From Bacteroidia bacterium (GTDB taxonomy: Bacteria > Bacteroidota > Bacteroidia > UBA7662), in contig JBDNIH010000168.1 in assembly GCA_041688385.1 (NCBI GenBank), forward strand, positions 4,312 to 68,311: a DNA stretch of 64,000 bases. Reading direction: 5' to 3'. Numbering within the stretch: position 1 is the first letter of the stretch; every line of letters begins with the position of its first letter. Shown in pieces: positions 1 through 50,601 of the stretch. Made by a program: the position numbers and the translations under genes. The notes below the pieces were generated by a model, which had not been told where the DNA came from, did no database searches, and saw only the letters and a list, made by a program, of their open reading frames with translations.

Positions 1-68
1 TCAAACCGCAAAAGGTGAAGTTCGAGGATGGGGAATAACAGAGGCGCTGACGCCTCCAGTATCCCCGT

Positions 69-1025
69 CTAGCTCGGCCTGTAGAGTATTTCCCAGCGCT
101 TCGCCATGAGCGCTTCATAGGCCTCCTGCATCTCCAACGACAAAAAGCTGCGTCTCAGTAATGCTTTGGCATCAGGCAGTTTTTTTTCAAAACGGTGAAA
201 GGCTGCTTCGATTTGTTTCGCAGTTAAGCCAAGTTTTTGACCGAATAGTTCGAAATGCGCCCGTTTTAGATTTTTCTTCTTTCCCAATAAGGTAAGCGCC
301 AATTCTTCTTCATCTGCAGGGTTGGCGATGGCCACGTTGAGCAGGTCATAAGCTGGTGCCAAAATCCAGCCCGAAGGCTGCTCAATCATCGAGAAATTTT
401 TCAAATGCATATCATTGTTCCCGGTGATGAAACAGAACAATGTCAGCTCAAAAAGGAGGATGCTATCCAGCAAAGGGTTAGCCGAGTAGGTGAGCAGCGC
501 TTTGCCTACTTTTTCCATGGAGCTTTTGTATTTATCGAAAGCTTCGGTGATTTGATACATATCGAGCATATGTATTTTTTCGCCTCTTGTTATCCGGTCG
601 ATTCTGCGGGTGAGAAAGGCCAATTCGCCCGAAACCAGCCGAATAAGGGTAGAAGGAGCGACACTTATCCCGAAAATTTCGGCCATCCGCATGGTGAGAT
701 GTTCGTTTTGAGGTAGTTCCTGATAATAACTGCTGGGGGGTTTGAGTATAAATAGCCCACCCATAGCTTCTGTCACGGTAAGGCGTTGGTTTGATTTGTC
801 AAGCGTATCTTTTATCGTGCTCAACGATAATTTAGCCTGAACACCCGGTACGGCTACACTACGTTCGATAACACTTTGGGCCAGTTCATTCATCTGGTCG
901 ATGGAGTAAGGGAGTGACGGTGGTTTAGTATGGCCAAAAAAAGTTTTAGAACAGCCAGGATGAAAATCCAGCGATGTCTCGAGGGGTAAGTAGCAGTACA
1001 AACACTTATTCATGGTCGGCTTCAT
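69..1025 (-). CDS. HipA-family Ser/Thr protein kinase, catalytic (HipA C-terminal) module only; HipT-like toxin of a split HipBST-type toxin-antitoxin locus
   Basis: The 318 aa protein carries the catalytic-loop motif GNNDMHLKNFSM (compare HipA GNxDxHxKNFS). It has a Gly-rich P-loop-like segment ERSVAVPGVQAKLSLS with a conserved Ser, aligning with the HipA autophosphorylation loop. There is an N-terminal CLYCYLPLE...HPGC mini-domain. Size matches HipT (about 335 aa) rather than full HipA (about 440 aa). The stop sits at 66-68 and the gene overlaps the upstream gene by 20 nt. Confidence 0.75.
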   Translation of the reverse strand: MKPTMNKCLYCYLPLETSLDFHPGCSKTFFGHTKPPSLPYSIDQMNELAQSVIERSVAVPGVQAKLSLSTIKDTLDKSNQRLTVTEAMGGLFILKPPSSYYQELPQNEHLTMRMAEIFGISVAPSTLIRLVSGELAFLTRRIDRITRGEKIHMLDMYQITEAFDKYKSSMEKVGKALLTYSANPLLDSILLFELTLFCFITGNNDMHLKNFSMIEQPSGWILAPAYDLLNVAIANPADEEELALTLLGKKKNLKRAHFELFGQKLGLTAKQIEAAFHRFEKKLPDAKALLRRSFLSLEMQEAYEALMAKRWEILYRPS

Positions 1026-1341
1026 GAATTGGGATGATACTTACTGCACCTATGCAGTTTTTGCAGCAGGCCAATAACAGTCCCATGGGGTCTTCTCGGT
1101 CTATTTTCCAATGGTTAGAGGCTATATCCAGTAACCAACCTTCGGGTATCAAACCTTCAAAAAAGGGGAAAAGCCGTGTGGACCTGTATTCTGCCTCTTG
1201 TACTGGCATCGCAAAGCTGAGGAAGTCGTTCGGGTGTTCGGCTACATACTTTGCGTCATATTGAAAGCCATATTCACCGTCGTCGGTTTCCCGAAGCAGG
1301 CCGGCCAAATGGTCTTTGTAAAAAACCTGTGCACTTCTCAT
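1006..1341 (-). CDS. HipA N-terminal-domain protein (HipS-like, free-standing Couple_hipA domain)
   Basis: The 111 aa protein has the HipA_N signature FFEGLIPEGW (compare HipA FFxNLLPEG) and the downstream D..GA-type segment CCKNCIGAVS. It is translationally coupled: a 4-nt ATGA overlap with the upstream HTH gene and a 20-nt overlap with the kinase gene. Sizes add up to a full HipA: 111 + 318 aa is about 440 aa. Confidence 0.7.
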   Translation of the reverse strand: MRSAQVFYKDHLAGLLRETDDGEYGFQYDAKYVAEHPNDFLSFAMPVQEAEYRSTRLFPFFEGLIPEGWLLDIASNHWKIDREDPMGLLLACCKNCIGAVSIIPIHEADHE

Positions 1342-1559
1342 GACATGCTCCGTTTGAGTGGCACGGGTGCTAGTTCGTGACCAAACATTTGTAGCACAAG
1401 GTTTACTTTATCGAGCTGCAAATTGGTTTTGCCTTGTTCGAGTTTTCTGATTACGGTCAAAGCCACACCTGCCCGCTCGGCAAATTCTTCCTGGGTTAGC
1501 TTTACGGCTTTGCGACGGGTTTTGATAAATTCCGCTAAATTTGATGTATGTATTTGCAT
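1338..1559 (-). CDS. XRE-family helix-turn-helix transcriptional regulator (HipB-like first gene of the module)
   Basis: The 73 aa protein matches the classic HTH_XRE (Cro/C1) pattern in LTQEEFAERAGVALTVIRKLEQGKTNLQLDKVNLVLQMFG. It is the first gene of a three-gene minus-strand operon and its stop overlaps the next start. Confidence 0.75.
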   Translation of the reverse strand: MQIHTSNLAEFIKTRRKAVKLTQEEFAERAGVALTVIRKLEQGKTNLQLDKVNLVLQMFGHELAPVPLKRSMS

Positions 1560-2187
1560 ATATTTTGTTTCAAATATAATAAATTATATGTTTTTAAATA
1601 TGATTTTGTTATAAAAAATTATTTTATACGTAATTGAATATGGAAACTATCTATAAATTGTTTTGCGCGCTTCATGCTTAAAAAAGGCTGATGGCATACA
1701 ATGGCTTTTCGACAATAAATTTCTTGTATTTGAAAAAGTAATGGTGACCCGCTAAGGTGGACGACCAATTTAGGGAGTTGGGGGAGTTGATTGAGTCCTG
1801 AAAAAGCGAGTTTTCGTTTTTGGGTGATTTGTTCAATGGGTAGTTGGGATAGCAGGATAGTAACAATACTGATGAATAGCGTAAGGGTAGTATAGCACTT
1901 CAACATTAAATGTTGTTAGAACAATTACTTATTTGCCACATCCCAATTGCTCTCTCCGCTTAAAAACTGGACTAGTTAGGCCGCATCTTTTCAGTGATTA
2001 ATCATTTTAGACTGTGGAGGCACAACTTCGAATTTGCGCTAATTGCTTAGCGAAAACCTCGTTTAAACAGGGTTCGATGAACGCACCGGGACGAGTAGTG
2101 GCCGCTTAACCAAAACACCCATCTGTCGAACTCCCTCAACTGCCCCACTGCCTCAACCCCCTCAACTCACTATTTCCCGCAACTATT

Positions 2188-2218
2188 TTTGCAGATATAT
2201 CCAGAATCATTACCTTTG
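2188..2218 (+). promoter_or_regulatory. Bacteroidetes sigma-A type promoter (TTTG-N19-TACCTTTG) for the yceD-rpmF-plsX-fabH operon
   Basis: TTTG sits at 2188-2191, then a 19-nt spacer, then TACCTTTG at 2211-2218, which matches the phylum -33/-7 consensus TTTG / TAnnTTTG. The ATG at 2229 implies a very short leader. Confidence 0.4.
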
Positions 2219-2228
2219 CAGTCCCGAA

Positions 2229-2774
2229 TTGGAAGCACTTCATGCATACAAGCTCCGGTTTTCAAGTCTGAATCTTGGATCCCATACGTTTGAATACAAC
2301 GTTGACGCCTCTTTTTTCGGCCATTTTCCGGGCAGTCTAATCACAGAAGGTGATTTGAAAGTAACGGTTGAGGTCGAGAAAAAAACAAGTGCCCTGCACT
2401 TACAATTCGGTATAAAAGGACAGATTGAACTGCCTTGCGACCGCTGCCTCTCATCTGTAATGGTGCCGGTAGACAGCTCAGCAAAGTTGGTAATCCGCCT
2501 CAGCGGTCAGCCTGGAACAGACGATGACGATCTGATTTGGTTGCCCATGACGGCGTACGAATACAATCTGTCCGCTTATATCTACGAAAACATCCATCTG
2601 AACATACCTTTGCGGGTAAGTTGTGAGATGGGACCGAATAAAGCTTGTCGTGCCGATGTGGAAGCGTTGCTTTCGAAATACAACGGTGAGGCAGCTGAAG
2701 AAGCAGCAGAAGAAGAGAAGACCGACGGTCCGATCGACCCACGCTGGGAGAAACTGAAAAATTTAAAGTTCTAG
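2229..2774 (+). CDS. yceD: YceD/DUF177 family protein (large-subunit rRNA accumulation protein)
   Basis: The 181 aa acidic protein has a Cys pair (CDRC...C) and a Glu/Ala-rich C-terminus. It sits immediately upstream of rpmF-plsX-fabH, the conserved yceD context. Confidence 0.7.
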
Positions 2775-2778
2775 TAAG

Positions 2779-2970
2779 ATGCCAAATCCGAAACACCGCC
2801 ACTCGCGGAGCAGAAGAGACAAACGCCGCACGCATTACAAAGCAGAAGCTGCTACCGTAGCTACTTGCCCTACCACCGGCCAGCCGCACCTTTTCCACCG
2901 CGCCCATTGGTTCGAAGGTAAGATGTACTACAAAGGCAAGGTTGTTATCGACAACGCCGTTGCTGAGTAA
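2779..2970 (+). CDS. rpmF: 50S ribosomal protein L32
   Basis: The 63 aa protein begins [21 protein letters not shown], the typical L32 N-terminus. It sits between yceD and plsX. Confidence 0.85.
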
Positions 2971-2983
2971 GTAAATCAGGTCA

Positions 2984-3922
2984 GTGAATATAGGCATTGA
3001 CATGATGGGGGGCGATTTTGCCCCAGAAACCACCCTCGACGGTGTTGTACGTGCCCTCAAATCGTTGCCTGCCGATGTGCAGCTGACCCTTTTTGGTGAT
3101 CAGCAACAGCTAGCGGCCGGCCTTGAAAAGGCAGGGGTTTCTGCCCATCGACTTACACTGGTACATACCAGTCAAGTCATTGCTATGGGCGAACATCCCA
3201 CCAAAGCCATTCCCAAAAACCCCGACTCCAGTATTGTGGTTGGGTTTTCCTATTTACGCGCGGGTAAAATTGATGCCTTCGCAGGAACCGGAAATACTGG
3301 AGCCATGCTGGTAGGTGCCATGTACACGGTAAAGTCGATACCCGGCGTAATTCGGCCGGCCATCGCCTCCTTGGTGCCTAAAGAAGACGGCAGTCACGGA
3401 CTCATACTCGATGTGGGTGCCAATGCCGATTGCCGGCCAGATAGTTTGCTGCAGTTCGGCATACTTGGTAACCTTTACGCCAAACATATTCTCAAAATCG
3501 AAACCCCGCGGGTGGCATTGATGAATATTGGTGAAGAAGATGAAAAAGGAAATCTTTTAGCTCAGGCTTCCTTCAAAATGATGAAGGACAACGAGTTTTT
3601 CCAGTTTACCGGAAATATCGAAGGTCGCGATTTGTTTAATAACAAGGCGGATGTAATTGTATGTGACGGCTTTACCGGCAATGTACTCATCAAAATGGCG
3701 GAGTCATTTCATGAGTTGGTTACCCACCGCCAGATTGAACATCCTTTTTTCGACCGCTTCAATTATGAGAACTATGGTGGCAGTCCGATACTCGGTTTAA
3801 ATGCCCCTGTGGTCATAGGACATGGCATTTCGAGTGGTGTTGCCATCGAGAATATGATCCGGCATGCGGTAGAGATCGCAGGCTCGGGCTTGACCGATCA
3901 AATTCGGGAAGCGTTTAATTGA
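2984..3922 (+). CDS. plsX: Phosphate acyltransferase PlsX
   Basis: The N-terminus is IGIDMMGGDFAPE, and the GFTGNVLIK and HGIS motifs are present. It precedes fabH. Confidence 0.9.
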   Translation: MNIGIDMMGGDFAPETTLDGVVRALKSLPADVQLTLFGDQQQLAAGLEKAGVSAHRLTLVHTSQVIAMGEHPTKAIPKNPDSSIVVGFSYLRAGKIDAFAGTGNTGAMLVGAMYTVKSIPGVIRPAIASLVPKEDGSHGLILDVGANADCRPDSLLQFGILGNLYAKHILKIETPRVALMNIGEEDEKGNLLAQASFKMMKDNEFFQFTGNIEGRDLFNNKADVIVCDGFTGNVLIKMAESFHELVTHRQIEHPFFDRFNYENYGGSPILGLNAPVVIGHGISSGVAIENMIRHAVEIAGSGLTDQIREAFN

Positions 3923-4011
3923 TTTTGCTTAAAGCTGAAAAGTTCTAATTTGCACGTTCATTCCCGGTGAAGACGGGGAACAGCCGCTTGCTTATTTCCT
4001 GAAAAATAGTA

Positions 4012-5010
4012 ATGACAAAAATGACTGCAGCCATCACCGGCATACATGCCTGGGCGCCCGAAGACGTGGTGACGAACTTCGACCTTATGAAGGTCATGGA
4101 CACCAACGACGAATGGATTCAAACCCGCACCGGCATACGGGAGCGCCGTTTTTTCAAAACCCCCGGTTCTGCTACTTCTGATATAGGTGTTCATGCCGTA
4201 AACGGCCTCATGGCCAAAACCGGCCTGAAACCCGAAGAAATCGAACTCCTCATCTGCTGCACCGCCACACCTGATATGGCTTTTCCGGCTACCGCCAACA
4301 TCATTTGCGATAAAATCGGCGCCAAAAATGCCGCTGGTTACGATTTATCTGCCGCCTGCTCAGGCTTTTTATTCGGACTCACCACCGGTGCCAAGTTTAT
4401 TGAAGCCGGCATGTACAAAAAAGTCGTCATCGTAGGTGCCGATAAAATGACGTCCATCCTCAACCTCGAAGACCGTGCTACCGCCATCATCTTTGGCGAC
4501 GGTGGGGGAGCTGTTTTGCTCGAACCTAATTTCGAAGGCAACGGTGTCATCGATGCCATCATGCGCAGCGATGGTAATGGTCGCCATTATCTACACCAAA
4601 AAGCGGGTGGATCGGCAAAACCCGCTTCTATCGAAACCGTTGAAGCCAAGGAACATTTTGTGTACCAGGAAGGCAAAACCGTCTTCAAATTTGCGGTCAC
4701 CAATATGGCCGATACCGCTGCCGATATTATGGCTCGCAACAACCTAACCCCCGATGACGTAACCTGGCTCGTGCCCCACCAGGCCAACAAACGTATCATC
4801 GATGCCACCCGCGAACGTGTAGGTTTGCCCGAAGAACGCACCATGGTGAACATCGAACGTTACGGCAATACCACCAATGGCACCTTACCGCTTTGTTTGT
4901 GGGAATGGGAAAATAAGCTCAAAAAGGGAGATGTCCTCATACTTGCCGCCTTTGGTGGCGGGTTTACTTGGGGAGCCCTTTATTTAAAATGGGCATACGA
5001 CACGAAATAA
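4012..5010 (+). CDS. fabH: 3-oxoacyl-ACP synthase III (FabH)
   Basis: The 332 aa protein starts AITGIHAWAPEDVVTNFDL, has the active-site Cys in SAACSGF, and shows the HQAN and GNTT motifs of KAS III. Confidence 0.9.
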   Translation: MTKMTAAITGIHAWAPEDVVTNFDLMKVMDTNDEWIQTRTGIRERRFFKTPGSATSDIGVHAVNGLMAKTGLKPEEIELLICCTATPDMAFPATANIICDKIGAKNAAGYDLSAACSGFLFGLTTGAKFIEAGMYKKVVIVGADKMTSILNLEDRATAIIFGDGGGAVLLEPNFEGNGVIDAIMRSDGNGRHYLHQKAGGSAKPASIETVEAKEHFVYQEGKTVFKFAVTNMADTAADIMARNNLTPDDVTWLVPHQANKRIIDATRERVGLPEERTMVNIERYGNTTNGTLPLCLWEWENKLKKGDVLILAAFGGGFTWGALYLKWAYDTK

Positions 5011-5061
5011 TCAGACTTATTTTTGCCGCCGAATACCCGTAAATCATAACTTGCATTCCTT

Positions 5062-5628
5062 ATGGCCAGTACATCCGAATTTCGCAATGGACTATGCATC
5101 AAATTTAACCACGACATCTATAAAGTTGTGGAGTTCCTGCACGTAAAACCAGGTAAAGGGGCCGCTTTTGTGCGGACCAAACTCAAAAGCATGACCACCG
5201 GTCAGGTTTTGGAGAACACCTTTCCTTCAGGCGCTAAAATCGACATCGTCCGCATCGAAACCCGCGAATACCAATACCTCTACAAAGACGATATCGGTTT
5301 CCACTTCATGGACAGTGATACCTTTGAGCAAATCACTATCGAAAAACCACGCATCAATGCACCGGAATTCCTCAAGGAAGGCATTATCTGCCTCGTTTTG
5401 GTAAATACCGACGATGAAACCATATTAGGCTGTGAATTACCACAGCATATTGATTATGAAGTTACCTACACCGAACCCGGTGTGCGTGGCGATACCGCTT
5501 CGGGCAATGCTATGAAACCTGCTACACTCGAAACCGGCAATGCCATCAACGTACCGCTATTCGTGAATACCGGCGACCGTATTAAGGTCGACCCATCCGA
5601 AGGCCGTTATATTGAACGTGTAAAATAA
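5062..5628 (+). CDS. efp: Elongation factor P
   Basis: The 188 aa protein contains the EF-P KOW region with a conserved K (KPGKGAAFVRTKLK) and three OB-like domains. Confidence 0.9.
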   Translation: MASTSEFRNGLCIKFNHDIYKVVEFLHVKPGKGAAFVRTKLKSMTTGQVLENTFPSGAKIDIVRIETREYQYLYKDDIGFHFMDSDTFEQITIEKPRINAPEFLKEGIICLVLVNTDDETILGCELPQHIDYEVTYTEPGVRGDTASGNAMKPATLETGNAINVPLFVNTGDRIKVDPSEGRYIERVK

Positions 5629-5650
5629 AACACCATTAACCAAGAAAACC

Positions 5651-6118
5651 ATGGATCTGAAAGAAATACAGGACCTCATTCGCTTCGTATCGAAGTCGGG
5701 TGTAACTGAAGTAGCATTGGAAAAAGACGGTTTTAAAATCGTGATCAAGTCGGACCGTCCTTCAGAACAAATTGCTTACGTACAGCAGGCACCTATGATG
5801 ATGGCACCACCCGTACATGCCGCCCCAGCTGTTGCCGCCCCGGTAGCTGCCGAAGCTGCTCCAGTAGCTCCGGTCGCCGAAAGTGGTGTGCCCATTAAAT
5901 CACCAATGATTGGTACTTTTTATCGTTCAGCCGGTCCCGACAAAGAATTTTTCGTCAAGGTAGGCGACAGCGTAGAAAAGGGCCAGGTGGTTTGTATTAT
6001 CGAAGCCATGAAGCTGTTCAACGAAATCGAATCGGAGGTCAGTGGTACCATCCTTAAGGTATTGGTTGATAATGCTAATCCGGTTGAATACGACCAGCCT
6101 TTATTCCTGGTAGGATAA
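5651..6118 (+). CDS. accB: Acetyl-CoA carboxylase biotin carboxyl carrier protein
   Basis: It has an Ala/Pro-rich linker followed by the biotinyl-Lys motif EAMKLFNEIE, and it precedes accC. Confidence 0.85.
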   Translation: MDLKEIQDLIRFVSKSGVTEVALEKDGFKIVIKSDRPSEQIAYVQQAPMMMAPPVHAAPAVAAPVAAEAAPVAPVAESGVPIKSPMIGTFYRSAGPDKEFFVKVGDSVEKGQVVCIIEAMKLFNEIESEVSGTILKVLVDNANPVEYDQPLFLVG

Positions 6119-6168
6119 GGCCGGCATTTGCCGCCTAATCCATTGCTGAACGCTTAAAAAAACATATC

Positions 6169-7512
6169 GTGTTCAAAAAAATACTGATAGCCAATAGAGG
6201 CGAAATTGCATTACGCATCATCCGGACTTGCCGGGAGATGGGCATCAAAACGGTGGCGGTATATTCTACAGCCGATCGCGAGAGCCTCCATGTACGTTTT
6301 GCCGATGAAGCGGTGTGTATTGGTCCGCCCAAAAGCATCGATTCTTATCTTAATATCCCGAGTATTTTGGCCGCCGCCGAAATAACCAATGCCGATGCCA
6401 TTCATCCAGGCTATGGTTTTTTGTCGGAGAACGCTAAATTTTCTGAAATCTGCCGCGACTATGGTATCAAATTTATCGGTCCGTCGCCAGAGTCCATTTC
6501 TTCGATGGGTGACAAGGCTACTGCTAAGGAAACCATGAAAGCCGCCGGTGTTCCTGTTGTTCCGGGCAGCGAAGGGTTGATCGCGAGCATCGAATTGGCC
6601 AAAATAGAGGCCGAAAAAATTGGCTATCCGGTCATCATCAAGGCAACAGCCGGTGGTGGTGGTAAAGGCATGCGGGTGATCTGGAAAGCAGAAGATCTCG
6701 ATACCATGTTTGATCAAGCCAAACGGGAGGCAGCCGCTTCCTTTTCGAGCGACGGTTTGTATATGGAGAAATTCATCGAAGAGCCACGTCACATCGAAAT
6801 TCAAATCATCGGCGACCAATACGGTAAAGCTTGTCATTTGTCGGAGCGCGACTGTTCCATTCAGCGCCGTCACCAGAAATTGATTGAAGAAGCACCGTCA
6901 CCATTTATGACCGACGATTTACGTCAGCGTATGGGCGATGCAGCCATTCGCGGTGCGACGGCTGTGGGTTATGAAGGCGCGGGAACCATCGAGTTTTTGG
7001 TCGACAAACACCGTAACTTCTACTTCATGGAGATGAATACCCGTATCCAAGTAGAGCATCCGGTTACCGAGGAAATTATCTCTTATGACCTCATTAAGGA
7101 GCAAATTAAGGTAGCGAGTGGTATTCCCATCAGCGGTAAAAATTATCTTCCGAAGATGCACGCCATCGAGTGTCGTATCAACGCCGAAGATCCATACAAT
7201 GATTTCCGTCCGAGTCCAGGAAAAATCACCACCCTACATGTACCAGGTGGTCACGGGATACGGGTAGATACCCATATTTACAGCGGTTATACCATTCCGC
7301 CGTATTACGACTCGATGATTGCTAAGGTTATCTCTATCGCGCAAACCCGCGATGAAGCCATCGCTACCATGGAGCGCGCTTTGAGTGAGTTTGTGATAGA
7401 GGGCATCAAAACCACCATCCCTTTCCATGTCAAAATGCTGAAAGACGAAAACTTTCGTGCCGGCAACTTCAATACCCAGTATATGAATACCTGGGAGATG
7501 GGCGAGCAGTAA
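6169..7512 (+). CDS. accC: Acetyl-CoA carboxylase biotin carboxylase subunit
   Basis: The 447 aa protein has the ATP-grasp motifs [11 protein letters not shown] and GGGGKGMR and the [14 protein letters not shown] segment. Confidence 0.95.
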
Positions 7513-7536
7513 ATTCAAAATTTCAAATTCAAAATT

Positions 7537-7570
7537 GGGCTTGGTTCGTATTTCGGATCAAGCCCTTTTA
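7537..7570 (+). terminator. Rho-independent terminator after accC
   Basis: GGGCTTGG...CAAGCCC forms a hairpin that is followed by TTTT. Confidence 0.6.
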
Positions 7571-7816
7571 CTTTGTACGGCTTTCTGTTTTAATGGTTCT
7601 AAGGTGCTAAAGTGGTCTCTTTGCGGCTTCCTGAAAAGGTTGCAGTTTTTACGTTAAAACGGTGATTGGCTGACGCCTCAATAGTAGCACATTTCAGCGC
7701 ATCCGTTTTCTTCTGTTGTGAAGCTCGCACAAGCGAGGCCATTAATATTGAACTCGAAATTTTGAACTAAAACAGCTCGAACCTTTTTGAAAAAGAAGCG
7801 TTAACTTTGTAATCCT

Positions 7817-8401
7817 ATGACTATGCAGACCGTACAAAACCTCGTCACCATTTACAGCGAATCAACGCCGAATCCAGAAACGATGAAATTCGTTTCGAAT
7901 CGTTATATATTACCCGACGCTAGCCTCGAATTTACCGACGCTACGAGTGCCGCGGCAGGTTCGCCTTTGGCGGCTAAATTATTTGAATTTCCCTTTGTAC
8001 AGGGGATTTTTATGGCCTCGAACTTCGTTACCGTAACTAAAAAGACTACGGAAGACTGGTTCGAAATCACGCCTATCCTGAAAGATTTCGTGAAATCTTA
8101 TCTCGAATCAGGCATGGCTATTTTAGCTGAAAAGCAGGTCGTAGCAGATACCAGTAACGACAGCGAGACCATCAAACGTATTCGCCAAATTCTCACGGAT
8201 TACATTCAGCCAGCGGTAGAACAAGACGGCGGAGCCATCAGCTACAAACATTTTGACGAAACTACGGGTGTGGTAACGGTGACCCTTCAGGGTTCATGCA
8301 GTGGTTGCCCTTCTTCTATGATTACCCTTAAAGCGGGCATCGAAAACCTCCTGAAACGTATGTTGCCCGAGGTAACCGAAGTAATTGCCGACACGCAATA
8401 A
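7817..8401 (+). CDS. NfuA/Nfu-type Fe-S cluster scaffold (Nfu_N + NifU C-terminal domain)
   Basis: The 194 aa protein has a C-terminal CSGCPSS (CxxC) NifU-like motif and an N-terminal Nfu_N-like segment ESTPNPETMKF. Confidence 0.8.
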   Translation: MTMQTVQNLVTIYSESTPNPETMKFVSNRYILPDASLEFTDATSAAAGSPLAAKLFEFPFVQGIFMASNFVTVTKKTTEDWFEITPILKDFVKSYLESGMAILAEKQVVADTSNDSETIKRIRQILTDYIQPAVEQDGGAISYKHFDETTGVVTVTLQGSCSGCPSSMITLKAGIENLLKRMLPEVTEVIADTQ

Positions 8402-8406
8402 TTACC

Positions 8407-10080
8407 TTAAAATCCGCCTACTTTATCATCTCCTCGGGGATCTGCGCCACCTTCTAGGGTAGCGTCAGGTAAAATACGTATGCCTTCGGCACGCCCGTAA
8501 GGAGAGGATGGTTTGAGTACATAGCCTCTTTCTTTCAAGTCGCGCAACATCCTTTTGTTAAAGCGGCCCAATTCAAATTTGACTTCGTCTGGCAACCACT
8601 GGTGGTGAAAGCGGGGGGATGAAACTGCGGCTTGTATGTTTTTGTCGTAGTCAAGCACGTGCATCAAAACCTGAAAAACAGTCGTAGGTATGGTACTTCC
8701 ACCAGGTGTGCCTGTGATGAGGTAGGGTTTTCCCTTTTGCAGCACAAGGGTAGGGGTCATAGAGCTGAGCATACGTTTGCCGGGGGCGATGGCGTTGGCA
8801 GCGCTGCCAACAAGACCGTAGCTGTTGGGAATGCCTGGTGCGATGCTGAAATCATCCATGGTATTGTTGAGCAGAAAGCCCGCGCCGGAAACAATCACTT
8901 TTGAGCCGTAAGGACCATTCAAGGAGGTGGTAGCCGTCATCAGGTTACCTGCTCCATCTGCCACACAATAATGGGTTGTCTGATCGGACTCTTGATAGAC
9001 TGTGCCAGGGAGGGTTTGGGTAGATTTGCCGGCATATTCCCAGCGGATGTTAGCTATACGTTTAGCGAGATAAACAGAATCAGTTAGTGCAGCAACGGGT
9101 ATAGTCACAAAATCTGGGTCGCCCAAATAGGCAGATCTGTCGGCATACGCTCTGCGTTCCGCTTCAATTACCAACTGCAGGCTACGCATATCGTTAGGGT
9201 CCCAGCGGTCTATAGGGTAGTTGTGTGTCATCTGCCAAATCTGCGACAGCAACACCCCTCCTGAGGAAGGTGGACCCATACTGTGAATGGTATAGTCACC
9301 GTAATCAAAGTGTAGGGTTGGACGCCAAATAGCTTGGTAGTCCGTTAAATCCTGTTGCGTAATGTAACCGCCACCAGCCGACATTTGCGCCACCAGGCTA
9401 TCCGCTACCGGACCGCTGTAAAAGCCTGCTTTTCCGTTTTCGGCTATTAATTCTAAGGTTTTGGCCAGCTGGGGATTGAGGAGGAGCTCTCCAGCTTTGA
9501 CATGGTGCTTATGGGTCAGATAGCTGTGTTTGCCGTTGTATTTTTCTAATTCCTTGTGGTGGCTGTTGAGTAAAGCAGCTTCTTTTTCTGTCAGTGGCCA
9601 GCCATGGCGGGCATAGGTAATGGCAGGTAACAACAGCGAATCCCAAGCCATGCGGCCGTATTGCTGATGCAAGGCATACATGCCAGCCACCGTGCCCGGT
9701 ATGCCAGCAGCTTGTAAACCATGGGTACTTCGTTTGGGGATTGGGTTGCCGGCACTATCAAGATACATGGTGCTACTTGCCGCCGCCGGGGCTTGTTCGC
9801 GGTAGTCCAAACTATTAATTTCTCCGTCGGCAGTATGGATGATGGCAAAGCCACCACCGCCTATATTGCCGGCGACCGGGAAAACTACAGCCAAGGCAAA
9901 TTCGGTAGCTACACCCGCGTCGAAAGCGTTGCCACCTGCCCGGAGCACAGCTAATCCAGCCTCGGTGGCCAAGGGGTGGGCACTAACCACCATGCCCTCA
10001 CAAGCATAATAGGGAGTAAGCGGATTGCCATTGCGCAAAAGCGGAACCAGCAAGAGGGCAATGATGAGGGAAGTTACCAT
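8407..10080 (-). CDS. ggt: Gamma-glutamyltranspeptidase
   Basis: The 557 aa protein has a signal peptide, the GGGGFAIIH motif, the autoprocessing/catalytic Thr in TTHYCVADGAGN, and the GSxIxTT motif. Confidence 0.9.
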   Translation of the reverse strand: MVTSLIIALLLVPLLRNGNPLTPYYACEGMVVSAHPLATEAGLAVLRAGGNAFDAGVATEFALAVVFPVAGNIGGGGFAIIHTADGEINSLDYREQAPAAASSTMYLDSAGNPIPKRSTHGLQAAGIPGTVAGMYALHQQYGRMAWDSLLLPAITYARHGWPLTEKEAALLNSHHKELEKYNGKHSYLTHKHHVKAGELLLNPQLAKTLELIAENGKAGFYSGPVADSLVAQMSAGGGYITQQDLTDYQAIWRPTLHFDYGDYTIHSMGPPSSGGVLLSQIWQMTHNYPIDRWDPNDMRSLQLVIEAERRAYADRSAYLGDPDFVTIPVAALTDSVYLAKRIANIRWEYAGKSTQTLPGTVYQESDQTTHYCVADGAGNLMTATTSLNGPYGSKVIVSGAGFLLNNTMDDFSIAPGIPNSYGLVGSAANAIAPGKRMLSSMTPTLVLQKGKPYLITGTPGGSTIPTTVFQVLMHVLDYDKNIQAAVSSPRFHHQWLPDEVKFELGRFNKRMLRDLKERGYVLKPSSPYGRAEGIRILPDATLEGGADPRGDDKVGGF

Positions 10081-10141
10081 AGGTTTAACGGCTGAAAAAT
10101 AAGGTATTCAAGTCGCTTGTGCATCCGTGCTGGCGGGCATT

Positions 10142-11557
10142 TTATTTACCCCTGGCCTCAAGTATGGTGAGTATGGTGTAAATCATAATTTTGAAGTCGA
10201 CCAACAACGACATATTCTCAATATACAAAATGTCGAATTTCAGCCTTTCCACCATTTGGTCGATGTTTTCGGCATAACCGTATTTTACCTGACCCCAGGA
10301 GGTAATGCCCGGTTTTACTTTGAGCAGGTGTTTATAATGGGGTGCTACTTTCATGATTTGATCGATAAAAAACTGTCTTTCGGGCCGTGGACCGACCAAT
10401 GACATCTCACCTATCAAAACATTGTAGAATTGCGGGATTTCATCGAGCCGCATTTTACGCATAAACGTACCCCATCGGGTTACACGTGGGTCGTTGTCGC
10501 TAGAGAGCGCCGGGCCGTTTTGTTCGGCATCCACCAACATCGACCTGAACTTATAAATGGTGAACGGAACGCCTTTATAGCCAATGCGCTCCTGGCTATA
10601 AAAAATGGCTCCTTTCGAAGACATTTTTACTCGAATTGCGATATAAATTAAGAGCGGTAATAAAATCAGCAAGGCAAAAAGTGAGGCAGCGATATCAAAG
10701 ATCCGTTTGAGTGTTCGTTGCCAAGCAGGCATTATAGCCGGATAAATTTCGATGAGGATGGCACCAAATATCTGCTGCATTTTAACGTGCCCCAGCATTA
10801 TATCGTACATATCCGGTATAATTTTGATGATAACACCTTCGTCCTTGACCATATTAACCACCTTGTTGAACTTTTTGTGCTGGTGGTCGTCGAGTGCAAT
10901 AATTACCTCCTCGATTTTATGTTCGCGTATGAGTTCAGGTAGCTGTTCTATTTCGCCTAATTTGATCAAATGATCACTTAATGGTGTTTTTTCTTTGGCG
11001 TAAAGGGATACAAAGCCAATGAAGTTGTTGCCTAAAGGTTTTGAACGACTGTGAATCTCCTGATACAACTCCAATGCACTTTGATTACCGCCAACCATGA
11101 TGGTATTGAATCTAATTTTTCCAGCATTAAAACGATACGAAATGCGCGTAAGCTGCATGAAGCGCATCAAAAAGGTGATGCCCAGTTGTAGGAAAAAGAG
11201 GGTACTGAACGAACGGTAGTACCCGTCGATGGAGAAGATAATGTCATCGAGTATAATGATGAAAAACAAAATCGTTACCCCAATCAGCGTTGCCAAAAGG
11301 GTGCGTCCCAATTCATTTAAACGCGATTTACGATAAACATCGCTGTAAGTACCCATGAGGGCGTACAATATCAACCAGCAGGCGGGAAGCGTGAGCAGAC
11401 CACCAACCAAGTTTTTATCGAAGTCGAAATAGTTGTTTTCACCGAAAAAGTGAGAGGCAATGTAAAATTTGCGGTAATAGAAGAATAGAAACCACGCCAA
11501 TGCTGCCGACAGCCAATCGCCCAAGATGTATTGAAAGGTGTCGAAGCGCTTTTGCAT
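10142..11557 (-). CDS. Polyprenyl-phosphate sugar-phosphate transferase (WbaP/WcaJ-like initiating glycosyltransferase)
   Basis: The 471 aa protein has N-terminal transmembrane segments and a C-terminal bacterial sugar transferase domain (KRIFDIAASLFALLIL...YKFRSM...DEIPQF...SLVGPRPE). Confidence 0.85.
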   Translation of the reverse strand: MQKRFDTFQYILGDWLSAALAWFLFFYYRKFYIASHFFGENNYFDFDKNLVGGLLTLPACWLILYALMGTYSDVYRKSRLNELGRTLLATLIGVTILFFIIILDDIIFSIDGYYRSFSTLFFLQLGITFLMRFMQLTRISYRFNAGKIRFNTIMVGGNQSALELYQEIHSRSKPLGNNFIGFVSLYAKEKTPLSDHLIKLGEIEQLPELIREHKIEEVIIALDDHQHKKFNKVVNMVKDEGVIIKIIPDMYDIMLGHVKMQQIFGAILIEIYPAIMPAWQRTLKRIFDIAASLFALLILLPLLIYIAIRVKMSSKGAIFYSQERIGYKGVPFTIYKFRSMLVDAEQNGPALSSDNDPRVTRWGTFMRKMRLDEIPQFYNVLIGEMSLVGPRPERQFFIDQIMKVAPHYKHLLKVKPGITSWGQVKYGYAENIDQMVERLKFDILYIENMSLLVDFKIMIYTILTILEARGK

Positions 11558-15053: not shown

Positions 15054-15446
15054 TTAACGTATGCTGTCGAAAAGCTGGAGTATACGTTCTTTTTTCAGGA
15101 TTTTTTGTCCCTGCCTGCCGCTTGCAATGAGCCGGTTACCCACCTTCGCCTCGTAGGTGCAAATCACATGGTTACCGGTAATACTTTCCAAAGTAGCCGT
15201 AAATACCACTTCTTGCCCAATTAATGCCGGGCTCCGATGTTCCACAGTTACAAAGGTGCCAATGCCTTCTTCATCCACTTCGCGCATCTCAAGTACAAAT
15301 TGTCGACATGCCCATTCCGCTTCACGCGACACTGCAAAGGTGGCATAAACGGGATGCACATTGCCCGTGGTAAAGGTGGCTGCATCCGCCTCGGTTACCA
15401 GATGCTGGATTTGTTTAAGAGCGCCTAGGTGAAAGGGGGTAATCAT
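15054..15446 (-). CDS. Hotdog-fold thioesterase family protein (FlK-like)
   Basis: The 130 aa protein shows a pattern parallel to fluoroacetyl-CoA thioesterase-type hotdog proteins (HPVYATFAVSREAEWACRQ...GIGTFVTVEHRSPALIGQEVVFTATL). It is coupled by ATGA to the upstream DtxR gene. Confidence 0.55.
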   Translation of the reverse strand: MITPFHLGALKQIQHLVTEADAATFTTGNVHPVYATFAVSREAEWACRQFVLEMREVDEEGIGTFVTVEHRSPALIGQEVVFTATLESITGNHVICTYEAKVGNRLIASGRQGQKILKKERILQLFDSIR

Positions 15447-16114
15447 AGGTTTTTTTGTACAAAAATGCTGCTACTGACTTGTTTTGAAACGACTAGCTCT
15501 CTGCCATCTGCAAATCCAATCGTCATGGAGCCATCAAAATCCACGCGTTTAAGCACCTTTATTTGTTTGCCTAAATTGAGGTTTACTTCGTCGAGATACT
15601 GGAGAAATTTGGGATCATGCTCAAAAACTGCGATGACCATACCTCTGTCGCCAATGCCTAATTTGTTTAGTAGTATCTGATTGGTTTGTGGTAGTTCACC
15701 ACTGGCACTTGGAATAAGGTCGCCATGTGGGTCGCTTGTAGGATTACCTAGATAATCATCTAGCCTTTGTATCAGCTTGGGTTCGCTCACATGTTCCAGT
15801 TCTTCTGCGATTTCATGTATTTCGTCCCAACCAAAATTCAGCTTTTGTACTAAAAATACTTCCCAAAGTCTATGACGGCGGATAATAGAAAGCGCTGTTA
15901 ACCGTCCTACCGGTGTAAGTGTTACACCTTGGTATTTTTTATAGTCTATCAGCAGTTTTGCCGCAAGTTTTTTAAGCATGTCCGTCACCGAAGCTGCACG
16001 TGTTTGCAACTGCTCTGCGATAGCGTTGGTGCTCGCTCCTTGCAAATCGTGCTCAGTAAGTTTGTATATCGCTTTGAGGTAATTTTCCTCGGTACTACTC
16101 AATCGGGCCTGCAT
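15443..16114 (-). CDS. DtxR/MntR-family metal-dependent transcriptional repressor with C-terminal FeoA/SH3-like domain
   Basis: The N-terminal HTH reads ENYLKAIYKL...ASTNAIAEQLQTRAASVTDMLKKL. The metal-binding and dimerisation regions follow, and a C-terminal FeoA-like domain completes it. 223 aa. Confidence 0.8.
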   Translation of the reverse strand: MQARLSSTEENYLKAIYKLTEHDLQGASTNAIAEQLQTRAASVTDMLKKLAAKLLIDYKKYQGVTLTPVGRLTALSIIRRHRLWEVFLVQKLNFGWDEIHEIAEELEHVSEPKLIQRLDDYLGNPTSDPHGDLIPSASGELPQTNQILLNKLGIGDRGMVIAVFEHDPKFLQYLDEVNLNLGKQIKVLKRVDFDGSMTIGFADGRELVVSKQVSSSIFVQKNL

Positions 16115-16407: not shown

Positions 16408-16758
16408 ATGCAAACAGAAAACACATCCATCCAAATGCGCAAGGGCACCCTAGAGTACTGCATACTCCTGGTGATCTCCCGCGGGGAGGTGTATACATCC
16501 GACCTGATCGACGAGCTCAAATCTGCTCGTTTTATCGTGGTAGAAGGTACCCTCTATCCCTTGCTGAACCGGCTCCAGAAATCGGGCTACCTCGATTACA
16601 CCTGGAAAGAATCTCCCGCCGGCCCGCCTCGTAAATACTACCGCCTCACGCAGGCCGGTACGTCTTTCCTCAAAGCGCTCCACGCTACTTGGAAAGAGCT
16701 GAGTGACTCTATCAACCTCATTATCGCCAACACAAAAAAAACCACTGGCCATGAATAA
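16408..16758 (+). CDS. PadR-family transcriptional regulator
   Basis: The 116 aa winged HTH has the PadR hallmarks LEYCILLVISRGEVYTSDLIDELK...GTLYPLLNRLQKSGYL...KYYRLT. Confidence 0.85.
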   Translation: MQTENTSIQMRKGTLEYCILLVISRGEVYTSDLIDELKSARFIVVEGTLYPLLNRLQKSGYLDYTWKESPAGPPRKYYRLTQAGTSFLKALHATWKELSDSINLIIANTKKTTGHE

Positions 16759-18559
16759 AACCGTCACATTTAACCTCAACGGATTGGTATTTACCATCGA
16801 GGAGGACGGCTACGCCCTGCTGAAACAGTATCTAGATACGGTAAAGGCCTACTTCGGTCGACAAGCCGACGGACTGGAAATAGTAAGTGAAATCGAAGCC
16901 CGCATTGCCGAAAAATTCCGTCTTGCTCTTGATGCAGCTGGCCGTCAAGTGCTCTATGCTGCTGATGTGAATCAGCTTATCACCGAAATGGGTACAGTGG
17001 ATGATTTTGAAGCCTTTGAAGCCGACGATGAAACACAAAATAATAACTATGAATCGACGTATACGGCCAGCTCAAGACCTAAGCGATTTTATCGCACCAG
17101 CCACAGCCGTATATTGGCCGGTGTTGCGAATGGTTTGGCGGTGTATTTAAAGGCAGATGTGAGTCTCGTTCGGCTGCTCTTTATTCTCAGCACAATTTTC
17201 CTCGCTGGTTTTGGTCTTATCCTCTACCTGGTATTGTGGATAGCTACACCTGAATCGGATGAAGTGGTGGCCCCAAGGCCTACCTCAAATGATAAAGGCC
17301 GTAAAAATACCCGATTATACCGCGATGCCGAAGATAAAGTGCTTGGTGGTGTTTCTGCAGGATTAGCAGCCTATCTCAGTATCGACCCACTGGCGGTGCG
17401 GATACTCTTTATTATCGCAACCTTTTGGGGTGGATTTGGCATACTCTCTTATCTCTTGCTCTGGATTGTGATGCCCGCGGCACGCAGCCTCTCTCAAAAA
17501 ATTGAGATGCGCGGACAGGAAGCCAATCTCGCGAATATGAAAGATGCCCGCCAGCCGAAAGGGGAGGTCAGGCCCAAAACAGGTCTAAATCGACTTCTCG
17601 CTCTTCCGGTAGATATTATCCGCTTTTTTGCCCATCTAATCAAAAAGATAGTCACGAGTTTTTCAGGGTTACTGCGGGTTTTTGGAGGCGGATTTTTAAT
17701 CTTCTTTAGCGCTGTTATTCTCTTCTCAATGATCGCGGTATTGAGCGTTATGATTGCCTATTTCACTGGCTATCTGTCTACCACCGAAATACCCTTCCCG
17801 CTCGAAACCATAAGTGGATCGGTTGTTTCAGACATAATCATCTCGATACTGCTGTTTTTGTTGATCATCATTCCAGTTCTCTACCTCCTCTATTTAGGCG
17901 TGCGTTTACTACTGAATCGGAAGCTATTTCGTCGTCCTGTTCTCGTGATTGGCGCTTGGAGCTGGCTGGCGGTAGTGGTGCTCTGTTTGGTAATGGCTAC
18001 ACGTACAGCACTTGAGTTTCAAAGTGAGGGCAGTATTACCCTGGATCAAAAAATTGTTTTGGGGCAAAATGAAATGCTCGAATTCCGACCTGAAGCTGAT
18101 AATGAGCAAGAACATTATGACTGGGTTAAGATTGAATGGAAAATCAGTGAAACAGATTCTGTCGTAACCCTTAAAAAGCGTCAGTTGGCAAGGGGGTCAT
18201 CGGTAGAGGTTGCACGCCAAAATGCAATGATGATCGACTACGTTATTGTAAAGACGGATACGCTAGTGGAGTTAGCGCGAGGTATTAACTTCAAGCCAGG
18301 TGCTCGTTTTCGGGCCCAGCAGGTCGAACTCGAGATTTATATCCCTAAAAATCGTCCGGTCCGTATTGATAATCGCTACTACTCGGACAGCGAGATTATC
18401 AACTATCACAATCTTGAGTTTAGCACCATAGAAACTTTTATCCTCACCGATGAAGGCCTAGCCTGCTTGAGTTGTAAACCCAGATCCACCAATACAGAAG
18501 AGGCCGACGAAGCGCTAGCACCTTTGCCAACAGCTCCGGATGCACCGGCAACCTTATAG
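16751..18559 (+). CDS. PspC-domain membrane protein (two PspC domains, large C-terminal extracytoplasmic region)
   Basis: The track ORF is 16703..18559. The likely start is ATG 16751 (MNKTVTFNL), which overlaps the PadR stop by 8 nt. Two PspC motifs are present (ILAGVANGLAVYL...LFILSTIFLAGFGLILYLVLWIATP and VLGGVSAGLAAYL...ILFIIATFWGGFGILSYLLLWIVMP). Confidence 0.75.
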   Translation: MNKTVTFNLNGLVFTIEEDGYALLKQYLDTVKAYFGRQADGLEIVSEIEARIAEKFRLALDAAGRQVLYAADVNQLITEMGTVDDFEAFEADDETQNNNYESTYTASSRPKRFYRTSHSRILAGVANGLAVYLKADVSLVRLLFILSTIFLAGFGLILYLVLWIATPESDEVVAPRPTSNDKGRKNTRLYRDAEDKVLGGVSAGLAAYLSIDPLAVRILFIIATFWGGFGILSYLLLWIVMPAARSLSQKIEMRGQEANLANMKDARQPKGEVRPKTGLNRLLALPVDIIRFFAHLIKKIVTSFSGLLRVFGGGFLIFFSAVILFSMIAVLSVMIAYFTGYLSTTEIPFPLETISGSVVSDIIISILLFLLIIIPVLYLLYLGVRLLLNRKLFRRPVLVIGAWSWLAVVVLCLVMATRTALEFQSEGSITLDQKIVLGQNEMLEFRPEADNEQEHYDWVKIEWKISETDSVVTLKKRQLARGSSVEVARQNAMMIDYVIVKTDTLVELARGINFKPGARFRAQQVELEIYIPKNRPVRIDNRYYSDSEIINYHNLEFSTIETFILTDEGLACLSCKPRSTNTEEADEALAPLPTAPDAPATL

Positions 18560-18649: not shown

Positions 18650-19044
18650 TCAAAACCCTGTCGTCGCGAGATGGCAGGGTTTGTTTTTACCCTCGATTTT
18701 TCCTTGCAGCATACCATTTAGCTGGGTTTTATTAATATACCGGGTGATATTATCTATTTGTTCCTGTTTAAAAATAACCTTGAAATAATACGAGCGCTGC
18801 CATTTAAACAGGGCACAGCCTGCCAAATGAATCCATTTGCTGGAGGGGGTCTTGTAGGCGCCTATTAGTTGTGATACAAAATGATTTTTGATGGTGGGAG
18901 AAGGGTTTTGTCGTATGGAATGTGAATTAATGCGCGCGTATGATCCGGCATAATTACAAAGGCAACCACCGTAACGTAGGGATATTGTTTTTCCAACCAC
19001 AACCATTGTTGGTGTGCAATCTGGCCATTGGCATTCAGTTGCAT
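18650..19044 (-). pseudogene. IS200/IS605-like (REP-associated tyrosine transposase-like) transposase remnant, frameshifted and with degenerate HUH motif
   Basis: The N-terminal fragment (18865..19044, 59 aa, below track cutoff) reads ...YVTVVAFVIMPDHTRALIHIP, which aligns to the RAYT VVLPEHMHCIWTLP region (HUH becomes HTR). The C-terminal fragment in another frame (track ORF 18650..19006) contains LFKWQRSYYFKVIFKQEQIDNITRYINKTQ (compare RAYT WQPRFWEHAIRN...YIYINP). The two frames overlap, so there is at least one frameshift. Confidence 0.5.
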
Positions 19045-19316
19045 GCCCTTGCTATTCAGCTCGCCAAATAGAAGAAATCGATCCTATATGCCTGTTGTAA
19101 CCTAATACAACCCATCCGACCGGTAATTAAACCCGGGATGCCGCAGGCGTTTTTGGTATTGCTCCATGTTTCCGTTCCCTACGTTCCCGAAACCGGATTG
19201 CCATACCGGCAATTCCGATTTGGTATTCATAATGCTGCGGCACAGCGCCCATATTGTGGTTTTTTAATGCCACGCGGCACCGTCATGGCATATCGTGGCA
19301 ACGGCGTTTTTTCAAA

Positions 19317-41806: not shown

Positions 41807-41881
41807 TCGGGGTGACTGGATTCGAACCAGCGACCTCACGCCCCCCAGACGTGTACGCTAACCGGACTGCGCTACACCCCG
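41807..41881 (-). tRNA. tRNA-Pro (anticodon GGG)
   Basis: The reverse complement folds as a cloverleaf. The acceptor stem is CGGGGTG/CACCCCG with the C1:G72 pair typical of bacterial tRNA-Pro. The anticodon arm is CACGT-CTGGGGG-GCGTG, the T-loop is TTCGAAT, and the discriminator is A. No CCA is encoded. Confidence 0.85.
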
Positions 41882-50173: not shown

Positions 50174-50246
50174 GCCTCCTTAGCTCAGTTGGTAGAGCAA
50201 CTGATTTGTAATCAGTAGGTCGCTGGTTCGAATCCGGCAGGAGGCT
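50174..50246 (+). tRNA. tRNA-Thr (anticodon TGT)
   Basis: The acceptor stem is GCCTCCT/AGGAGGC, the anticodon arm is ACTGA-TTTGTAA-TCAGT and the T-loop is TTCGAAT. Confidence 0.85.
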
Positions 50247-50253
50247 CATTGAT

Positions 50254-50337
50254 GGGGAGATACCAGAGTGGCCAAATGGGACCGACTGTAACTCGGTTGC
50301 GAAAGCTTCGGAGGTTCGAATCCTCCTCTCCCCACCA
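50254..50337 (+). tRNA. tRNA-Tyr (anticodon GTA), type II with long variable arm, CCA encoded
   Basis: The acceptor stem is GGGGAGA/TCTCCCC, the anticodon arm is ACCGA-CTGTAAC-TCGGT, and there is a long extra arm. The 3' end is ACCA. Confidence 0.85.
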
Positions 50338-50372
50338 ATTTGCTGAATGCAAATGCGATACCAGTCGCAAAA

Positions 50373-50445
50373 GCGGGAGTAGCTCAGTTGGTAGAGCGAT
50401 AGCCTTCCAAGCTATAGGTCGCGAGTTCGAGCCTCGTCTCCCGCT
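50373..50445 (+). tRNA. tRNA-Gly (anticodon TCC)
   Basis: The acceptor stem is GCGGGAG/CTCCCGC and the anticodon arm is ATAGC-CTTCCAA-GCTAT. Confidence 0.85.
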
Positions 50446-50529
50446 CAAAAACCTTCGGGCCAACCCGAAAACGAATACACCGGATCACACCGGGACCAGA
50501 CTCCAGACGGGAGAAAAGTCAGAAAGATT

Positions 50530-50601
<72 letters not shown>

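Follow-up and report, generated by a model that had tools for sequence, protein, structure and literature searches.

A predicted hipB-hipS-hipT toxin-antitoxin operon in a Bacteroidia bacterium and the zinc-knuckle-like motif at the start of its kinase

Do three small overlapping genes of a Bacteroidia bacterium form a toxin-antitoxin (TA) module, and what, if anything, distinguishes it from the modules already described? The genes lie near one end of a 64,000-nucleotide stretch of contig JBDNIH010000168.1 (GenBank assembly GCA_041688385.1), and this whole stretch is called the window below. A sequence-only reading of the window had taken them for a tripartite split-HipA module of the HipBST type. 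This identification was right: three open reading frames (ORFs) with the described domains are present. They very probably constitute an intact tricistronic type II TA operon, hipB-hipS-hipT, which is predicted to be functional and to belong to the Legionella-type HipBST subclade. The module is ordinary, since such systems are known and have been recorded before as common in this phylum. Less well described is one of its features, a zinc-knuckle-like motif that is conserved at the N-terminus of the kinase.

How are the genes arranged? The three minus-strand ORFs follow one another in the order hipB-hipS-hipT and are translationally coupled, with overlaps of 4 nt (hipB/hipS) and 8 nt (hipS/hipT). 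The coordinates are collected in Table 1. The longest form of the hipT ORF spans 69..1025 and encodes 318 amino acids from an upstream ATG at 1025, but the start is most likely the second in-frame ATG at 1013, which gives a protein of 314 amino acids. The N-termini of HipT homologues (MxNKCLYC) favour the latter start, and P0001, a database gene call of 314 amino acids that is 100% identical to HipT, begins with MNKCLYC, i.e., at 1013. The overlap of this start with the hipS stop is ATGAATAA. In most of 80 genome loci, the end of hipS lies 5 nt past the point where the HipT match begins, in keeping with an overlap of 8 nt. The overlaps had been given earlier as 4 nt and 20 nt; the former value stands, while the latter shrinks to 8 nt from the conserved hipT start. 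Residues of HipT are counted from this conserved start (ATG 1013) throughout.

The domain assignments are consistent with a HipA kinase divided into two proteins. HipT matches Pfam HipA_C (E value 6.1e-41) over residues 59-285 and lacks a Couple_hipA domain. HipS matches Couple_hipA (E value 1.7e-25 in Pfam, residues 5-102 of 111) and TIGR03071 (E value 7.6e-28). Thus, PF13657 and PF07804, the two profiles expected from the sequence-only reading, were both matched. HipB matches HTH_3 (E value 2.5e-10) and TIGR03070 couple_hipB (72.3 bits against a cut-off of 71.65), and it matches Legionella HipB (8ezt) with an E value of 1.2e-4. All of the motifs quoted in the earlier reading, namely FFEGLIPEGW, GNNDMHLKNFSM, SVAVPGVQAKLSL, CLYC...HPGC, and CCKNC, were found in the proteins.

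Is the kinase closer to HipT or to HipA? Among the PDB sequences, HipT matched Legionella HipT (8ezr/7vkb) with an E value of 4e-47 and Escherichia coli O127 HipT with 1e-15, as compared with 1.7e-8 for Shewanella HipA and 3e-3 for E. coli HipA. With a HipT family profile, the corresponding values were 4e-61, 1e-23, 1e-12, and 8e-8. An AlphaFold2 (AF2) model was built from 88 diverse relatives and has a mean pLDDT (predicted local distance difference test) of 94.5 and a pTM (predicted template modeling score) of 0.92; an earlier model from 22 close homologues, with a pLDDT of 62, was discarded. Using Foldseek, this model was matched to apo Legionella HipT (7vkc) with a template modeling (TM) score of 0.90 along its entire length, N-terminal mini-domain included, to E. 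coli HipT (7ab3) with 0.84, and to HipA with about 0.7. Thus, sequence, profile, and fold agree that the kinase is nearer HipT than HipA, as had been proposed.

The kinase motifs are intact, including the Gly-rich loop, K91, the DxHxxN catalytic loop, and D223, and the alignment confirmed the presence of the catalytic Asp and Lys. Conservation was assessed with 88 relatives, with identity down to 33%, and additionally with a 22-sequence alignment. K61, K91 (in I-L-K-P-P), and D223 are invariant in the HipT relatives, and conservation among the 88 is at least 90% for G57 and Q59 of the Gly-rich loop (G-V-Q-x-K), D201, H203, K205, and N206. In Legionella HipT, D219 is the Mg2+-binding Asp (PMC10653801).

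Which protein may neutralize this kinase? The best PDB matches of HipS are the three solved HipS proteins, those of Haemophilus influenzae (HI_0666, 6e-14), Legionella (3e-12), and E. coli (1.5e-11). HipT is neutralized by HipS, and not by HipB, in the two HipBST systems that have been tested. Trp65 of E. coli HipS wedges beside HipT's Gly-rich loop and is needed for the neutralization (PMC10627512). The window HipS has E67, G68, and W69 at the equivalent positions, and these three residues are invariant in 81 HipS sequences. In contrast, Legionella HipS has Ile65/Met66 where the window HipS has Trp.

Is this gene arrangement common in other bacteria? One genome per species of GTDB was scanned, and at least 594 genomes have a relative. 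The loci analysed are the best 80 of these genomes; they come from many Bacteroidota families, which make up almost all of the relatives, as well as Chlorobiota and Balneolia. The relatives occur in hundreds of Bacteroidota isolates and metagenome-assembled genomes (MAGs) from sediment, soil, freshwater, digesters, and gut samples. Of 81 loci, 80 have the order hipB-hipS-hipT on one strand, and the remaining one is truncated by a contig end; hipS is directly upstream of hipT in all 81, and hipB is present in 80. The three genes are thus co-conserved, and nothing contrary to the tripartite reading emerged from the domain searches, the kinase alignment, or the relatives. When the window was compared with a syntenic relative (locus L002) whose HipT is 81% identical, the ratio of nonsynonymous to synonymous substitutions (dN/dS) was 0.058 for hipB and 0.061 for hipT. 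For hipS, the proportion of nonsynonymous differences (pN) was 0.118 and the synonymous sites were saturated. Purifying selection on each of the three genes is strong.

Lin et al. (2023) described the Legionella-type HipBST subclade as distinct from the E. coli type and as widespread in the Fibrobacterota-Chlorobiota-Bacteroidota superphylum (PMC10653801). The taxonomic novelty of the present locus is therefore small, given this report and the relatives in at least 594 species genomes. The remark in the sequence-only reading that the family has been characterised almost only in Proteobacteria is true of the experiments, but homologues in Bacteroidota had already been published (PMC10653801). 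A second HipT-like ORF was observed near hipBST in four related loci (L005, L009, L066, and L071), and Lin et al. noted a HipBA beside a HipBST homologue in Bacteroides uniformis (PMC10653801).

Is there a sign of autoregulation upstream of hipB? The 130 nt upstream of hipB were searched in 76 loci, together with shuffled controls. A palindrome, TATATG-N6-CATATA, is conserved in this region, and its 22-nt consensus is ATTATATnTAAAAGCATATAAT. The sites are located at about -100, -60, and -20 from the hipB ATG. Three sites are present in 54 of the 76 loci, two in 18, and four in 4, while 94% of the shuffled controls have none. The Bacteroidota -7 promoter consensus is TAnnTTTG. Such an element occurs in 58 of the 76 loci, in most cases at -35 to -31 relative to the hipB ATG, and the window has a match to it between two of its three candidate operators. 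The layout of these putative operators is the one expected for autorepression by HipB or by HipBST.

The spacer upstream of hipB had been described as a 670-nt AT-rich non-coding stretch. It is 669 nt in length (1560-2228), but it is AT-rich only in the hipB-proximal part of about 300 nt, which has a G+C content of 0.31-0.38 and contains the putative promoter and operators; the remainder has 0.40-0.46. A sigma-70 promoter and terminator scan, which is ill-suited to Bacteroidota promoters, gave no excess over shuffled sequences. An Rfam search of the whole window at the gathering threshold revealed tRNAs only, and a relaxed search of 1500-2300 revealed no RNA family. A possible fourth gene, orf95 (1619-1906, minus strand, 95 amino acids), was called by the Joint Genome Institute (JGI) in a near-identical contig. 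It was rejected as probably spurious because it has no Pfam match and no homologue in the 80 related loci and overlaps operator O1. Separately, short C-rich direct repeats (AACTCCCTCAACT and AACCCCCTCAACT) with a 26-nt spacing are present at 2120-2167, upstream of yceD-rpmF-plsX.

How may the activity of HipT be controlled? The canonical autophosphorylation positions are -3 and -1 from the Gly of the Gly-rich loop. Both of them are autophosphorylated in E. coli HipT (Ser57 and Ser59 in S57-I-S59), and -3 (Ser54) in Legionella HipT. In contrast, the window HipT has A-V-P in place of S57-I-S59, with Ala at -3, where it aligns with the Legionella Ser54, Pro at -1, and Ser52 at -5. In 120 close HipT homologues, the loop reads R-S-[VI]-[A/S/T]-[VI]-P-G-V-Q. 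At position -3, 62 of them have Ala, 42 have Ser, and 14 have Thr; position -1 is almost always Pro, and the Ser at -5 is nearly invariant. Since Ala and Pro occupy -3 and -1, autophosphorylation at the canonical serines is impossible in the window HipT. Legionella HipT is active without autophosphorylation (Lin et al. 2023; PMC10653801). The likeliest arrangement is that the window HipT would be controlled by HipS alone, and Ser52 is a possible alternative site of autophosphorylation.

HipT's N-terminal mini-domain has four putative zinc ligands, C4, C7, H18, and C21. The sequence-only reading had noticed this cluster as an extra of the kinase; its presence was confirmed, but other proteins of the lineage have it too. 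The CxxC...HxxC motif is found in 119 of the 120 close homologues, and the four ligand residues are invariant in the 22-sequence alignment. Across the 88 relatives, C4 never varies and the conservation of C7, H18, and C21 is at least 90%, on a par with the catalytic residues; the cluster is thus lineage-wide. In the AF2 model, the segment has a pLDDT of 94-96 and consists of a short hairpin, bridged at residues 3 and 10, and a subsequent helix (residues 19-26), at whose start H18 and C21 are located; the layout is treble-clef-like. Judging from the ligand pattern and the model, the knuckle most likely binds zinc and would stabilize the mini-domain before the Gly-rich-loop helix.

Do the solved HipT proteins have this knuckle? 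In the profile alignment, Legionella HipT has C-P-I-T...Y-S-x-x-G at the knuckle columns and therefore retains one of the four ligands, the first Cys. The alignment of E. coli HipT begins at column 31, so that its knuckle region lies outside this comparison. The E. coli HipBST structure paper described HipT residues 1-41 as a mini-domain "of unknown significance", and no mention of zinc or of cysteines in HipT was found in the HipBST papers that were searched. A search of the PDB with the N-terminal 70 residues of HipT gave chance matches only, and a profile was needed to align the N-terminus of Legionella HipT.

It was found that a representative protein library contains single-chain relatives of 427-538 amino acids, in which a HipS-like domain, a linker, a CLxC...YHxxC knuckle, the Gly-rich loop, and the kinase follow one another. 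The linker is variable (20-50 amino acids), and P0156, P0186, P0195, and others are 34-42% identical to the window HipT. By their domain order and similarity, these proteins are regarded as unsplit versions of this HipT lineage. The presence of the knuckle in them indicates that it is an old feature of the lineage. Its position is that of the inter-subdomain linker of HipA.

HipS has a cysteine cluster of its own, CCKNC. This had been described as a tail of HipS, but it occupies residues 92-96 of 111 and lies within the Couple_hipA match (5-102). C92 is conserved in 80 of 81 HipS sequences, and C93 and C96 in all 81. The same columns are V, G, and V in Legionella HipS and N, G, and L in E. coli HipS. 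Of these cysteines, the second and third alone recur among the fused relatives, several of which carry the knuckle without the HipS cysteines; the two Cys clusters therefore probably do not form one site. The HipS cysteines were also considered as co-ligands of the HipT knuckle, which is unlikely because HipT has four ligands already.

May the knuckle be a regulatory element and not a passive structural zinc site? This is quite unlikely. If it were so, the knuckle may be a zinc or redox switch, in which oxidation or metal loss unfolds the mini-domain and frees the Gly-rich loop from HipS. Such a switch may activate the toxin under stress, in place of the autophosphorylation control that the Ala/Pro loop cannot use. 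Otherwise, the knuckle may recognize the substrate or a tRNA. In the regulatory case, C92, C93, and C96 of HipS may form a second redox-sensitive patch, located on the antitoxin.

Table 1. Positions of the genes, protein motifs, and candidate regulatory sites of the module in the window, with the single-chain relatives of the kinase.
Feature	Position	Strand	Basis or remark
hipT, HipA_C-type Ser/Thr kinase toxin (predicted)	69..1013	-	Pfam, PDB sequence matches, AF2 model
hipS, free-standing HipA N-subdomain-1 protein, 111 amino acids, presumed antitoxin	1006..1341	-	Couple_hipA
hipB, 73-amino-acid XRE/Cro-type helix-turn-helix (HTH) protein, presumed operator-binding autoregulator	1338..1559	-	HTH_3, TIGR03070
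HipT Gly-rich (P-) loop, S52-V-A-V-P-G-V-Q-A-K61	831..860	-	Alignment to HipTs
HipT catalytic loop, G198-N-N-D201-M-H-L-K-N206	396..422	-	Sequence; aligns with Legionella HipT GNEDMHLKN
HipT Mg2+-binding motif (by alignment), Y222-D223-L-L-N226	336..350	-	Aligns with Legionella HipT PAYDLLN
HipT N-terminal mini-domain, residues 1-37, with putative zinc ligands (CxxC-x10-HxxC)	903..1013	-
HipS E67-G68-W69, equivalents of E. coli HipS Glu63/Trp65	1135..1143	-	Alignment to 7ab4_B
HipS C92-C93-K-N-C96	1054..1068	-	Clade-specific Cys-rich version of the canonical G-x-D-C-x-G-A motif, where the Couple_hipA domain ends
Candidate operator O3, TATATG-CAAATA-CATACA	1545..1562	-	1 mismatch, sequence as read on the minus strand; left half-site includes the hipB ATG; counterpart at about -20 in most of the 76 related promoters
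TATATTTG, match to the TAnnTTTG -7 box	1571..1578	-	Between O2 and O3
Candidate operator O2	1585..1602		2 mismatches; 40 nt upstream of O3; counterpart at about -60 in relatives
Candidate operator O1	1625..1642		3 mismatches (2 in L001); 40 nt upstream of O2; counterpart at about -100 in relatives
Single-chain relatives			P0156, P0186, P0188, P0195, P0198, P0199, P0203, P0206, P0207, P0221, P0233, P0236, P0256

How would such a module work? The precedents are found in the studied HipBST systems (PMC10627512, PMC9325769, PMC10653801). By analogy, free HipT would phosphorylate an essential protein and arrest growth, and an aminoacyl-tRNA synthetase is the best guess for this protein. HipS would bind to the N-lobe of the kinase, insert Glu67 and Trp69 beside its Gly-rich loop, and keep this loop in an ejected state that is unable to bind ATP. 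HipS would thus be the antitoxin. HipB dimers, probably as HipBST complexes, would bind to the three palindromes, which bracket the -7 box and the hipB start, and the operon would be repressed.

Several points weigh against this picture of a HipBST operon with a zinc knuckle. The window HipT has no Ser or Thr at either canonical autophosphorylation position, and the Ala recurs in about half of the close clade. A loop of the A-psi-P type, where psi stands between the Ala and the Pro, is outside all of the motif classes described for 48 HipT orthologues (PMC10627512). The HipBST experiments so far do not include any Bacteroidota member. Neither TrpS nor GltX rescued the toxicity of Legionella HipT (PMC10653801). 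The sequence-only reading had named TrpS as the substrate of HipT in HipBST, which is not supported for the window HipT: TrpS is the target of the E. coli HipT and holds for that kinase only. The number of palindromes in the window alone is not significant (4, where 1.65 are expected; 7 of 100 shuffles also gave as many as 4), and the case for the operators comes from the clustering of the sites and their conservation across genomes, which would predict binding of HipB or HipBST. Likewise, zinc binding by the knuckle is inferred from the ligand pattern and the secondary structure of the model.

Could the parts have other roles? Many TA modules act in defence. The main role of this one might be anti-phage abortive infection, in which a phage releases or activates HipT and translation is shut down. 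The cassette behaves as a mobile unit, as in 51 of the 80 loci none of the flanking genes recurs at another locus, and homologues with 43-50% identity are found on Bacteroidota plasmids. There are also matches to the PADLOC candidate system PDC-M03A/B (E values 2.5e-6 and 1.7e-5), but these are weak and partial. No defence genes flank the cassette in the window, where the neighbours are housekeeping genes, and no experimental link between HipBST and phage defence was found in the papers that were read. An anti-phage main role is thus rather unlikely; it is compatible with the TA mechanism in any case and bears on the biological role only.

A different division of labour is conceivable, in which HipB is the true antitoxin as in HipBA and HipS is a detached N-subdomain required for the activity or folding of the kinase. 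HipS and HipT together reconstitute one HipA, single-chain relatives with the same knuckle exist, and HipB matches TIGR03070, which is an antitoxin family by its NCBI name. However, the two tested HipBST systems speak for HipS in this role, the Glu and Trp that form the wedge in E. coli HipS never vary here, and the 73-residue HipB lacks the C-terminal extension and the Trp that E. coli K-12 HipB inserts into HipA (PMC10627512). It is very improbable, then, that HipB takes the place of HipS. The closest solved homologue of HipT, Lpg2370 of Legionella, has been described as a Dot/Icm substrate (PMC9325769), and a plasmid homologue is labelled in RefSeq as "lpg2370 family Dot/Icm T4SS effector" (T4SS, type IV secretion system). 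That the window HipT is likewise a secreted effector kinase is hardly credible, because no secretion-system genes are present among the examined parts of the window and flank, the relatives are spread over hundreds of environmental and gut-derived Bacteroidota MAGs and isolates, and the tight coupling to a cognate inhibitor and a repressor is TA-like. The reading as a HipBST operon, with HipS as the presumed antitoxin of HipT, is therefore preferred.

Where does the cassette reside? In the window, hipB is divergent from yceD-rpmF-plsX-fabH-efp-accB-accC. The other flank is seen in a near-identical JGI metagenome contig (L001; Ga0105053_10000353 of sample 3300007522), which is 99.73% identical over positions 1-11003 of the window; two of the differences are in operators O1 and O2. 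In this contig, hipT is convergent with pdxA, which is followed by a leucyl aminopeptidase gene and ksgA. The cassette of L002 lies beside the same pdxA-pepA-ksgA genes, and therefore the insertion predates the split from L002. In the other loci, the flanks are unrelated. The G+C content of the cassette (0.44-0.49) is near that of its neighbours. The cassette is a small mobile unit inserted between housekeeping genes and not part of an island. The accessory island suggested by the sequence-only reading is at odds with the housekeeping flanks, the neighbour-like G+C content, and the ordinary chromosomal genes among those sampled toward an insertion sequence (IS) relic about 17 kb away. The sampled genes are the fatty-acid, efp, and acc block, regulators, and transporters. 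As for the IS200/RAYT relic itself, a frameshifted relic-like match exists, but it is weak and irrelevant to the module: it lies at 18650-19230 on the minus strand, with fragments such as VIMPDHTRALIHI across several frames, and Y1_Tnp gave an E value of 0.002, below the gathering score. A phage origin of the cassette was also considered and rejected, since there is no INPHARED match and relatives are on only 5 of 2.9 million IMG/VR contigs.

Some other features of the window were noted in passing. A gene for a DtxR-type iron-dependent repressor fused to an FeoA domain lies at 15443-16114 on the minus strand. Beside it, at 16408-18559 on the plus strand, a PadR regulator gene overlaps a gene for a 618-amino-acid PspC-domain membrane protein. 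Four tRNA genes are clustered within 430 nt at 50174-50601 (plus strand), and two more are located at 51950-52022 (plus strand) and 41807-41881 (minus strand).

What does this locus add? By itself it adds little, as it is one more copy of an already catalogued cassette found in hundreds of Bacteroidota genomes. Its value lies in exemplifying cleanly the majority form within the Legionella-type HipBST lineage. As compared with the two crystallised systems, the majority form has a probable zinc knuckle in the mini-domain, has lost both canonical autophosphorylation sites, pairs a Trp-wedge HipS with a Legionella-like kinase, and has a promoter with three candidate operators that offers a ready DNA-binding assay. 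A genetically tractable Bacteroidota member could help to find the target of the Legionella-type clade.

How does the module compare with the known systems? The nearest is HipBST of Legionella pneumophila (Lpg2368-2369-2370; PDB 7vkb, 7vkc, 8ezr, and 8ezt), which has the same gene order, short overlaps, and a HipB of 72-76 amino acids, as compared with 73 here. Its HipT is the closest kinase, with 36-39% identity and identical DMHLKN and PAYDLLN motifs. The window module probably belongs to the Legionella-type subclade, as judged by the kinase similarity and the short HipB. HipBST of E. coli O127:H6 (PDB 7ab3, 7ab4, and 7ab5) is also tripartite, with a Glu/Trp wedge in HipS, a mini-domain in HipT, and an HTH protein as HipB. 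However, its HipT is a more distant kinase (23-24% identity to the window HipT), and a disordered N-terminal extension (about 35 residues) makes its HipB longer. The window module thus pairs a HipS having the E. coli-type Trp wedge with a Legionella-like kinase. Classical HipBA shares the kinase superfamily and the catalytic motifs, HipS resembles N-subdomain 1 of HipA (E value 6.5e-6), and palindromic operators bound by an HTH partner, which are predicted for the window module, are a further common point; the E. coli hip operators have the analogous design TATCC-N8-GGATA. In contrast to the window module, HipA is a single chain without the N-terminal knuckle mini-domain, and HipB is the antitoxin. 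The unsplit knuckle-bearing HipA-like proteins have parts that are colinear with HipS and HipT but are fused in one polypeptide.

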